The notes beneath the pieces are model-generated. The model had not been told where the DNA came from. It saw only the letters and a program-made list of their open reading frames with translations, and ran no database searches. A stretch of 17,112 nt of DNA from a virus. Taxonomy: Duplodnaviria; Heunggongvirae; Uroviricota; Caudoviricetes. Below, one piece after another: positions 12,254 to 13,855 of the stretch. Within the stretch, counting starts at the first letter, position 1. Each line of letters opens with the position of its first letter. The position numbers and the translations under genes were made by a program. The stretch lies in IMG/VR virus record IMGVR_UViG_2541047699_000018. The stretch is one strand, 5' to 3'.

Positions 12254-12521
12254 AATGGGACTGAACAGCGATGTCACTGCCGAAGAGGTTTATGACCTGG
12301 CTGTACTGGCGCTGAATTTATCAAATATCGCAAACCTGAAGCGATACGAGCTTGATATGGATGGTTGCGACTCGTGCGGTCAGGATTGTGGCGCAGATAT
12401 GACTGAAGATCCTGATGGTGATTATGTCCTGTTTGATGACGTGGTTAAGTTGTTTGAATTTGATACAACCACTCAAAAGTTAGAAATCCCGGCAAAGGAG
12501 GCTGCCAGTGAGCAAGATTGA
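12207..12521 (+). CDS. Hypothetical acidic protein
   Basis: 104 aa from ATG 12207 (the ORF track start at 12183 is a TTG). Contains a CDSCGQDCG motif. Confidence 0.45.
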   Translation: MTITKQRVEKIIYRHEMGLNSDVTAEEVYDLAVLALNLSNIANLKRYELDMDGCDSCGQDCGADMTEDPDGDYVLFDDVVKLFEFDTTTQKLEIPAKEAASEQD

Positions 12522-12690
12522 CTATCAGGCACTGCGCGAGGCGGCGGAACAGGCAACGCAAGATGAATGGGTAGCATATATTTGCCGGGTCATAACGGCA
12601 TTTATCCTGCGCGCACGTCTGAGGGTAGGCATTGCGGATACTTTATTGACTGGCCTGGCGTCTGTCAGGGGCGGGAGAGCATCAACATGA
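12508..12690 (+). CDS. Ea22-like N-terminal module, possibly a gene fragment
   Basis: GTG start with SD aaggagg 6 nt upstream. N-terminus MSKIDYQALREAAEQA is duplicated at 13190. Arg/Gly-rich C-terminus; stop overlaps the next ATG. Confidence 0.35.
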   Translation: MSKIDYQALREAAEQATQDEWVAYICRVITAFILRARLRVGIADTLLTGLASVRGGRAST

Positions 12691-13193
12691 GCATCAGAAC
12701 CTACGCAGTGAATTGCAATGACGCATGGCTAAACACCGAAGGTGATGACATCTCCGGCTCATACGTTAAGTACAAAGACCATCAGGAAGTGGTTGCCGCT
12801 CTTGAGGCCAAGTGCGCGGCGCTGGCAGCGGAGAATGCGGGAATAAAGTCTGCAATTCCAGAATCACGGGATATTGAAGATGACAATGACAATATGGATG
12901 ACGTATCTCTCGCGGAAGACTTCGGGTTCAATCATGCAATAGAACGGATGAGGAGACAGATACCTGAAACGCCAACCACTGATGCTTTCCTGGCTGAAGT
13001 CCGGGCGCAGGGGGTGGATGCTGCTATAGAAGCTGCAAAAAATCTGGTGGCCCAAGAATATGAGTATAAGGATTTCAAAGCGGCGCAGAGTGATTGCTGT
13101 ATGTACCCTGGTTCAGACCTGGTAGGGAAGGTTGAAATGACTGAGTGGTTAGTTGACTTTGCTGCCCAGCTTCGCAAAGGAGGCAACCAGTGA
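12687..13193 (+). CDS. Hypothetical protein (possibly the Ea22-like body)
   Basis: 168 aa from ATG 12687 (SD gggaga); acidic middle; stop overlaps the next GTG start. Confidence 0.5.
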   Translation: MSIRTYAVNCNDAWLNTEGDDISGSYVKYKDHQEVVAALEAKCAALAAENAGIKSAIPESRDIEDDNDNMDDVSLAEDFGFNHAIERMRRQIPETPTTDAFLAEVRAQGVDAAIEAAKNLVAQEYEYKDFKAAQSDCCMYPGSDLVGKVEMTEWLVDFAAQLRKGGNQ

Positions 13194-13855
13194 GCGAAAT
13201 TAATTACCAGGCACTGCGTGAGGTGGCGGAACGTGCAATTCCAGCAATGGAACGCCTGTTAATGTTGCCAGCTGATGATGACTTGTTAAGTGAACAGGAA
13301 CTTAAAGATTACGGTGTGGATATTGATGCGCTCAACGCCTTCAAATTTCTGACCGGACCAGAAACCGTGCTGGCACTGCTGGATGAACGGGAAAGAAACC
13401 TGCAATACATCAAAAGCCGCGATCAGGAGAACGAGGATATTGCGCTAACGGTAGGGAAGCTGCGTGTTGAGCTGGAAGCAGCAGAGAACAACCTTATTGA
13501 TAGTGAATGCCATGTTGCTGAACTGGAAGAAGCGCTACGCGATAAGCAGGCGTTACTTGAAGCCTCAGAAAAGCGCATAGCAGAACTGGAAGCACGGGAA
13601 ATAAAACCAGCCAAAGGCGAAGTTCTTGTCGTTGTATCTGGTTTTACTGGTTGCGGAAAAAGCGCCATTGCCGGGGAAATAGAAATCGCGATGAAGGCTA
13701 TTGGTGTACCGGTTAAGTGGACTAATGGCGATGCAGAAAAGCGCATGACTGGCGCTGACTGGCTGACAGCGATTGAGATGTACAAACCAACTGTGCGCAT
13801 CGTGGAAGTTAATGTGCCACGCGCCGCTGGCATTCGCATCAAAGGAGGTGAGTAA
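13190..13855 (+). CDS. Ea22-like coiled-coil protein with C-terminal P-loop-like motif
   Basis: GTG start with SD aaggagg. N-terminus MSEINYQALREVAERA; central coiled coil; GFTGCGKS matches GxxxxGK[ST]. Confidence 0.55.
   Translation: MSEINYQALREVAERAIPAMERLLMLPADDDLLSEQELKDYGVDIDALNAFKFLTGPETVLALLDERERNLQYIKSRDQENEDIALTVGKLRVELEAAENNLIDSECHVAELEEALRDKQALLEASEKRIAELEAREIKPAKGEVLVVVSGFTGCGKSAIAGEIEIAMKAIGVPVKWTNGDAEKRMTGADWLTAIEMYKPTVRIVEVNVPRAAGIRIKGGE

Follow-up and report, generated by a model that had tools for sequence, protein, structure and literature searches.

Why should two neighbouring genes open with nearly the same 65 nucleotides (nt) and then go separate ways, one into a short reading frame with an odd tail and the other into a protein with a nucleotide-binding signature? 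This question is raised by a 17,112-nt stretch of virus DNA (Caudoviricetes; IMG/VR record IMGVR_UViG_2541047699_000018), the whole of which is called the window below. An earlier note, made from the letters alone, had described a duplicated start module on two genes, suspected that the first gene, an open reading frame (ORF) of 60 amino acids (aa) coupled to one of 168 aa, was frameshifted or recombined, and drawn attention to a P-loop-like motif in the 221-aa product of the second. We find that the window very probably carries two tandem genes of the Ead/Ea22 family, of which the first (gene 1) was broken by the loss of a single T and the second (gene 2) acquired a swapped-in C-terminal domain, with the conserved modules around them acting as patches of homology. 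Coordinates are collected in Table 1.

A repeat search reported a single family of direct repeats, with two 65-nt copies that are spaced 682 nt apart and identical at 54 of 65 positions (83%). The best 65-mer self-match in 30 shuffles of the 3-kb region was 38 of 65, with a mean of 35, and the repeat of about 60 bp that the earlier note had placed at 12493-12552 and 13175-13234 is thus borne out. Both copies have the same layout: a Shine-Dalgarno (SD) site AAGGAGG, a 6-nt spacer, a GTG start within GTGA, and 16 codons with the pattern MSxIxYQALRE. The encoded N-termini, MSKIDYQALREAAEQA in copy 1 and MSEINYQALREVAERA in copy 2, agree at 12 of 16 residues, and the GTG of copy 2 overlaps the stop codon of gene 1. 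No third copy was found in the window by a six-frame search for the YQALRE motif. The alignment of the two proteins is confined to their N-termini, with about 16 clearly similar residues. The same module opens lambda ea22, which begins with GTGAGCGAAATTAACTCTCAGGCACTGCGTGAAGCGGCAGAGCAGGCA and whose protein starts GTGAGCGAAATTAAC..CAGGCACTGCGTGA as in the window genes, and it was also observed in tandem Ea22-like genes of a P1-like plasmid and of other prophages. Because the module is family-wide and the two genes are otherwise dissimilar paralogues, the repeat reads as the conserved 5' end of Ead/Ea22 genes (PF13935) and not as a recent local duplication. The module unites a translation-initiation context (strong SD site, GTG in GTGA to couple stop and start) with a helix conserved at the N-terminus. 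A role of this module as an RNA element was also considered and rejected, as RNAalifold gave four pairs with no covariation at -4 kcal/mol and Rfam had no match there. Promoters and terminators around both genes showed no enrichment over shuffles. Separately, three other small plus-strand genes of this operon (12207-12521, 14495-14680, and 14677-15021) have another common N-terminal module, MTTITKE/Q... (phrog_3323 and phrog_60), in front of unrelated C-termini, so that the operon repeats the pattern of one start placed on genes that otherwise diverge.

Membership of both genes in the family was assessed with PF13935, whose gathering score of 27 bits both exceed. For gene 2 the match covered model positions 1-139 (114.9 bits, E=5.4e-33); that of the intact gene 1 product ran in one stretch over positions 1-138 (102.2 bits, E=4.6e-29), although the two proteins resemble each other pairwise in the N-terminal segment only. 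The intact gene 1 product was also covered end to end by phrog_368 (1-228 vs 1-239). The fragments present in the window divide the model between them, the 60-aa ORF taking positions 1-25 (38.8 bits, E=1.7e-9) and the 168-aa ORF positions 48-138 (43.3 bits). The Ea22-like N-terminus that the earlier note proposed, while allowing that the similarity might lack statistical support, is thereby confirmed by the scores of both genes, by the same start on lambda ea22, and even by the 60-aa fragment alone.

The nature of gene 1 was settled by comparing the window with two E. coli chromosomes, one carrying an intact allele (L002) and one a differently broken allele (L003). The 686 nt of gene 1 in the window equal the intact 687-nt allele of L002 (WP_033877702.1, 228 aa) except that one T is missing at 12581-12583. 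In L003, the third genome of the alignment, the T4 run is kept and a TG-to-TGTG duplication (L003 3533-3536) lies 50 nt downstream, splitting the gene into 61 + 168 aa. Apart from T3/T4 and TG/TGTG, the three sequences are identical over 686-689 nt. The 60-aa and 168-aa ORFs are therefore pieces of one frameshifted gene, as had been suspected, and the alignment to intact Ea22-like alleles that the earlier note proposed located the lesion to a single base. The ORF layout is also as it described, with an ATGA overlap between the 60-aa and 168-aa ORFs and a GTGA overlap before the 221-aa ORF, and the Arg/Gly-rich tail that it found implausible consists of 35 out-of-frame residues after 25 genuine ones. 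In 16 phage records, homologues 46-63% identical to the 228-aa protein were found with at least 80% of its length in one tblastn piece, which means that these diverged relatives read through the point at which the window breaks. The 60-aa and 168-aa ORFs are thus not separate conserved genes, the outcome that would have undone the frameshift reading. Gene 1 is FRAMESHIFTED. One T was lost from the T4 run of the 228-aa gene, probably by replication slippage, after which the ribosome reads 35 wrong codons and terminates at 12688-12690; reinitiation at the overlapping ATG could yield a 168-aa product that lacks the N-terminal module.

Gene 1 was itself observed to be a mosaic. Residues 63-92 of its protein share 80-87% identity with a portion of the P22-like Salmonella phages' 'EaE protein', and residues 152-228 are ~95% identical to gene ends in CUS-3 and other phages. 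In complete genomes, 154 of the 240 places at which gene 1 occurs are on P1-like phage-plasmids (E. coli plasmids of 87-100 kb); on these too, as in L004 (NZ_CP020051.1, 1956-3145), gene 1 precedes a second Ea22-like gene with a 4-nt overlap. The presence of the tandem pair on P1-like phage-plasmids too suggests that it moves between these and lambdoid prophages.

Gene 2 has the N-terminal segment and coiled coil of lambda Ea22 (NP_040612.1; PF13935 / IPR025153), with which it aligned by BLASTP over residues 1-148 (E=4e-31). The likeness takes in the start module GTGAGCGAAATTAA..CAGGCACTGCGTGA, the coiled-coil block with its nearly identical center LLDERERNxQYIKxRDQENEDIALTVGKLRVELE, the 3' tail AGIRIKGE, and the operon position upstream of xis and int. 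Gene 2 thus corresponds to lambda ea22. It differs in an insertion of ~20 aa after the N-terminal helix and in its C-terminal domain, which is unrelated to the lambda domain whose nuclear magnetic resonance structure has been published (PMC10834534), and the window differs from lambda in carrying a second, tandem paralogue. Both genes fit what has been described for the family. Ea22 proteins are mosaics in which a common amino-terminal segment and coiled coil are joined to unrelated C-terminal domains, several variants can occur in one genome, and 933W ea22/L0065 is a gene split in two (PMC7093339, PMC8614690, PMC10834534). The Ea22 variants of Shiga toxin (Stx) phages (V1-V3) resemble the window genes in all of the first three respects, and with 933W ea22/L0065 the division of an ea22 gene into two ORFs, as in gene 1, already has a precedent in the literature, although that split arose from an insertion event and the one in gene 1 from a 1-nt deletion. 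The Walker-A domain at the C-terminus of gene 2 is absent from the domains described for the Stx variants (PMC10834534, PMC8614690, PMC7093339).

Phage PhiR49_2 offers a direct view of how the start modules may recombine. It has the same flanking genes and a single 221-aa ea22, and the 682 nt between the two copies of the module are absent. The start of its ea22 is a hybrid, with copy-1 sequence up to CAGGCACTGCG and copy-2 sequence after it. The protein with this hybrid start was found on 61 contigs and the window-type protein on 26. The PhiR49_2 arrangement is what one would expect from a deletion by recombination between the start modules, which would remove gene 1 exactly; an insertion into a PhiR49_2-like phage would equally yield the two arrangements, and the junction would lie inside the module either way. 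Other exchanges leave similar traces. In many E. coli prophages the match to the window ends at ~13481, where the conserved central block closes, and another C-terminus follows; phiV10-like phages match the window from ~13364 onward. Conserved 5' and 3' DNA modules bound the Ea22 genes, which also have a conserved central block in common, and these blocks would serve translational coupling in the operon while also acting as homology patches for the exchange of cassettes.

Conserved boundary sequences at module junctions are a feature of lambdoid phage mosaics, as set out in the modular theory and in comparisons of HK97, HK022, and N15. The Ea22 modules resemble them in that islands of identity flank unrelated interiors and the recombinant junction falls inside an island. 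They differ in lying inside coding sequence, in the first 16 and last 7-8 codons, and they contain SD sites, so that translational coupling and protein function add to their conservation.

At the other end of the gene, the 3' module GCTGGCATTCGCATCAAAGGAG encodes AGIRIKG(G)E and contains AAAGGAGG, the SD site of the next gene, whose ATG at 13855 lies in a TAATG overlap (13853-13857). It is identical in lambda ea22, and its last 19 nt are identical in gene 2 of L002, which has an unrelated C-terminal domain; the conserved length ranges from 19 to 22 nt. The module, as GGCATTCGCATCAAAGGAG encoding GIRIKG(G)E, was observed at window 13827-13857, at the 3' end of lambda ea22 (L013), and at L002 4550-4580. 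A C-terminal K/R-G-E motif of unknown significance has been reported for Ea22 proteins (PMC7093339). Compared with this tripeptide, gene 2 ends in KGGE and gene 1 in RKGGNQ. The SD site of the next gene, read in the DNA, is a candidate explanation of the motif. In lambda the next gene lies 190 nt past ea22, so the motif may be a relic there.

The C-terminal part of gene 2 required a separate evaluation. The earlier note had the 221-aa protein ending with GFTGCGKS, which is incorrect, as the motif occupies residues 151-158 and 63 residues come after it; that remainder is nevertheless too short for a full NTPase domain, as the note had said. Its P-loop-like motif is present and is not a stray one, since it belongs to a conserved and portable domain of ~70 aa within a unit formed by the last 86 residues. 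A search of 1.84 billion cluster representatives found 444 proteins that match the domain at E<=0.001, most often as the C-terminal part of proteins 110-620 aa long and in some cases as the N-terminal part. The consensus GxxxxGKS is almost invariant (GxxGxGKS intact in 264/271 domain sequences), and in an alignment of 20 sequences down to 55% identity the invariant positions include G16, T18, G19, G21, K22, and S23 of the Walker A motif as well as V67, I69, and E71 of a Walker-B-like hhhhE segment (V-R-I-V-E). No Pfam, NCBIfam, or PADLOC model covers the domain (NCBIfam and PADLOC gave sub-threshold noise), and Pfam assigned no family to it in ten distant proteins that bear it. One such relative was observed in Stenotrophomonas maltophilia (L014, CP031058.1, 3622-9232), where a 453-aa protein has the mini-domain at its N-terminus. 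Its gene, part of the early operon of a prophage with an integrase at the operon's end, follows immediately on a diversity-generating retroelement set (Lcl_C, bAvd, RVT_1) and precedes a DNA methylase.

Comparison with known structures gave graded results. A search of PDB sequences with the full gene 2 protein returned coiled-coil noise only, and a profile search gave weak matches only (best E=0.007), of which ~29 of 41 were P-loop NTPases, including UvrA, APS kinase, gluconate, shikimate, and cytidylate kinases, AAA+ proteins, and a designed 'phosphate-loop protein'. The segment GDAEKRMTGAD resembles DQEIEKRTGAD of shikimate kinase, and an hhalign comparison with E. coli AroK, run after this resemblance was noticed, gave 71.6% probability (E=3.5e-5, 38% identity over 42 columns). 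The alignment takes in Walker A, helix 1, and strand 2, continues into the next helix, and reaches EKRxTGAD. As controls, 43 neighbouring K-12 proteins scored at most 12.9%, and PEPCK (7.9%) and FeoB (0.7%) matched at their P-loops only. In the structure model, a helix begins at the Walker A Lys. The domain thus has a GxxxxGK[ST] motif between strand and helix, and it lacks the three-layer alpha/beta fold with a parallel sheet of at least five strands that defines P-loop NTPases. By fold, it is not a member of any NTPase family. Nor does it have the full shikimate kinase core with lid and substrate-binding elements, the hhalign match spanning AroK residues 9-54 of 173 only.

We lean, by a narrow margin over the opposite view, towards an origin of the domain from the N-terminal third of a shikimate-kinase-like P-loop kinase. 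It shares with AroK, of the shikimate/gluconate kinase type, the Walker A motif, helix 1, strand 2, and the EKR-TGAD segment, and differs in having ~70 rather than 173 aa and no lid, adenine-binding loop, or C-terminal half. To our knowledge, ~70 residues is about half the size of the smallest P-loop NTPases. The designed minimal phosphate-loop proteins (PDB 6c2u/6c2v) are comparable in being very small strand/P-loop/helix units, with a profile match that is not significant (E=0.33), and differ in being engineered, whereas the gene 2 domain is a natural, putative binder. The chance that GxxxxGKS is a chance or relic motif in a domain with no phosphate-binding function has to be taken seriously, though we place it well below even: the small size, the missing lid and base-binding elements, the inconclusive structure model, and the lack of a curated family would fit it, while the survival of GxxxxGKS down to ~55% identity and in unrelated protein contexts, in company with the invariant hhhhE and the AroK-like EKRxTGAD, argues against it. 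That the domain actually binds phosphate or nucleotide is nonetheless less likely than not, and if it does, it would probably do so only within a coiled-coil oligomer. We tentatively propose, as likewise less likely than not, a natural, autonomous ~70-residue Walker-A domain from an AroK-like ancestor that would bind phosphate, nucleotide, or polyanion in the Ea22 coiled-coil tetramer, and would be a portable sensor or effector in prophages from Enterobacteriaceae to Stenotrophomonas.

For gene 1, the alternative that survives best is that the split is itself functional, either as a selected two-gene arrangement or through recurrent inactivation of a gene whose intact protein is costly to the lysogen. 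In its favour, two independent frameshifts, a 1-nt deletion here and a 2-nt insertion in L003, interrupt a gene in which no further decay was seen. Both alleles terminate at a TGA overlapped by an in-frame ATG, and 7 nt upstream of that ATG stands GGGAGAG (12673-12679), which resembles an SD site. Both are also common in public assemblies: at least 999 contigs carry the 61-aa product and 741 the exact 60-aa product, against 32 with the intact 228-aa product. The common stop (12688-12690) and restart are, however, not independent evidence, as both indels shift into the same frame and the arrangement then follows automatically. The contig counts are inflated by heavily sequenced clones, and they are an unfair measure because the short fragments are invariant and the full-length protein has many variants. 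The idea that the intact form is rare, taken from these counts, was rejected after each site had been counted in complete genomes: a scan of 5,426 from E. coli found the gene 1 segment in 234 records, with T3 in 7 and TGTG in 33, so that the TGTG allele is commoner than that of the window, and the remainder, roughly 194 of 234, are in frame at both sites. This predominance of the in-frame allele, the single ORFs of diverged homologues, and the identity of the alleles elsewhere in the gene, which means recent lesions, make a functional split improbable. Annotation of the two alleles is uneven: RefSeq (PGAP) marks a T3-allele copy (L005, 685 nt) as a frameshifted pseudogene, and the TGTG allele is annotated by PGAP as two separate coding sequences for 'ead/Ea22-like family protein', not as a pseudogene.

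Rescue of the 228-aa protein from the T3 allele by programmed -1 ribosomal frameshifting or transcriptional slippage is very unlikely. In its favour, the lost base belongs to a run of Ts, and one and the same (-1) shift would restore both known alleles; an initial idea that they need opposite ribosomal shifts was rejected. Yet, read from the sequence, 12584-12688 holds no heptamer of the form X XXY YYZ, three Ts are far too few for transcriptional slippage, and most alleles and all diverged homologues are in one frame, with neither a conserved shift nor a conserved two-frame arrangement; no conserved RNA structure was found in the test, which covered the start module only.

Six independent assemblies from different projects give a gap-free match to the full 2,001 nt of 12100-14100; five agree at 100% and the sixth, a metagenome scaffold, at 99.95%. 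All six have T3, and one is a complete chromosome. The T3 lesion is therefore real and heritable, not an artefact. A sequencing or assembly error in the homopolymer, or a misassembly from the 65-nt repeat, is hardly credible: a single-base homopolymer difference is the classic error type, but T3 versus T4 is a short run, these assemblies agree over 2 kb, and T3 recurs in seven complete RefSeq genomes and, by its exact 60-aa product, on the 741 contigs.

Table 1. Features of the two-gene locus and its immediate neighbours (window positions)
Feature	Position	Strand	Description
Upstream gene, 104 aa, phrog_3126	12207..12521	+	Last codons contain the gene 1 SD; overlaps the gene 1 start by 14 nt
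Start module copy 1	12492..12556	+	SD AAGGAGG 12495-12501, GTG 12508, first 16 codons of gene 1
Gene 1, Ead/Ea22-like (phrog_368 type)	12508..13193	+	Frameshift pseudogene or split gene in the window; the intact form has 228 aa
60-aa ORF	12508..12690	+	25 true N-terminal residues + 35 out-of-frame (Arg/Gly-rich tail)
Identical core CAGGCACTGCG	12526..12536 (copy 1), 13208-13218 (copy 2)	+	11 nt; PhiR49_2 crossover interval
Frameshift site	12581..12583	+	T3 here vs T4 in intact alleles; 1-nt deletion, short homopolymer
Second frameshift allele site	12633..12634	+	TG to TGTG elsewhere; single TG in the window
168-aa ORF	12687..13193	+	Residues 61-228 of the intact protein; start is internal Met61
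Start module copy 2	13174..13238	+	SD AAGGAGG 13177-13183, GTG 13190, first 16 codons of gene 2
Gene 2, lambda-ea22-like, 221 aa	13190..13855	+	PF13935 over residues 2-134 (N-terminal helix + coiled coil), then a different C-terminal domain
C-terminal domain core	13616..13819	+	Residues 143-210; predicted strand, Walker A, helix, strand, helix, strand ending in invariant Glu
Walker A GFTGCGKS	13640..13663	+	Residues 151-158, Lys157
3' end module GCTGGCATTCGCATCAAAGGAG	13827..13847	+	Encodes AGIRIKG(G)E; AAAGGAGG is the SD of the next gene
Downstream gene, 58 aa, phrog_13831	13855..14031	+	Translationally coupled to gene 2

The genes around the pair form a chain on the same strand that leads from the repressor side to an excisionase-type gene (DUF1233, 15507-15743) and then the integrase (from 15799). 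The window holds the early-left operon, in the order repressor, xis, int, of an E. coli prophage of the lambdoid type, and its Ea22 genes occupy the position usual for the family, upstream of xis and int. Megablast matched parts of the 2-kb region, mosaic every time, to 428 phage records and to 2,526 of the 5,426 complete genomes of E. coli. On the minus strand, C4 antisense RNA (RF01695, 75 bits) and isrK (RF01394, 62 bits) were detected at Rfam gathering level at 7566-7653 and 7675-7751; they mark a P1/P7-type c4/ant-like immunity element, on the other arm of the same lambdoid prophage.

Within the known picture of Ea22, the tandem pair, the shared start, and the frameshift are ordinary, and the frameshift was already flagged in RefSeq. 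What is modestly new is an explicit recombinant with its junction inside the start module, a matching conserved 3' module that doubles as an SD site, and an undescribed, widely distributed Walker-A mini-domain as a further Ea22 C-terminal cassette. A practical consequence for annotation is that the 'ead/Ea22-like family proteins' of 60 and 168 aa that appear in many E. coli records represent a single frameshifted gene in two halves, to be handled as a pseudogene. The locus is a clean example of Ea22 shuffling, in which conserved blocks flank exchangeable interiors and one junction falls in an 11-nt identical core, and its 3' block gives the K/R-G-E motif a simple candidate explanation in the SD site of the next gene. 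For Ea22, a pro-lysogenic function and the formation of tetramers are known only from experimental work with lambda and Stx phages (PMC7093339, PMC10834534). The Walker-A domain is the sole part of the locus with wider potential: nucleotide binding, if it occurs, would make it a natural P-loop of unusually minimal size and a clue to the signal that Ea22-type proteins sense in the decision between lysis and lysogeny.

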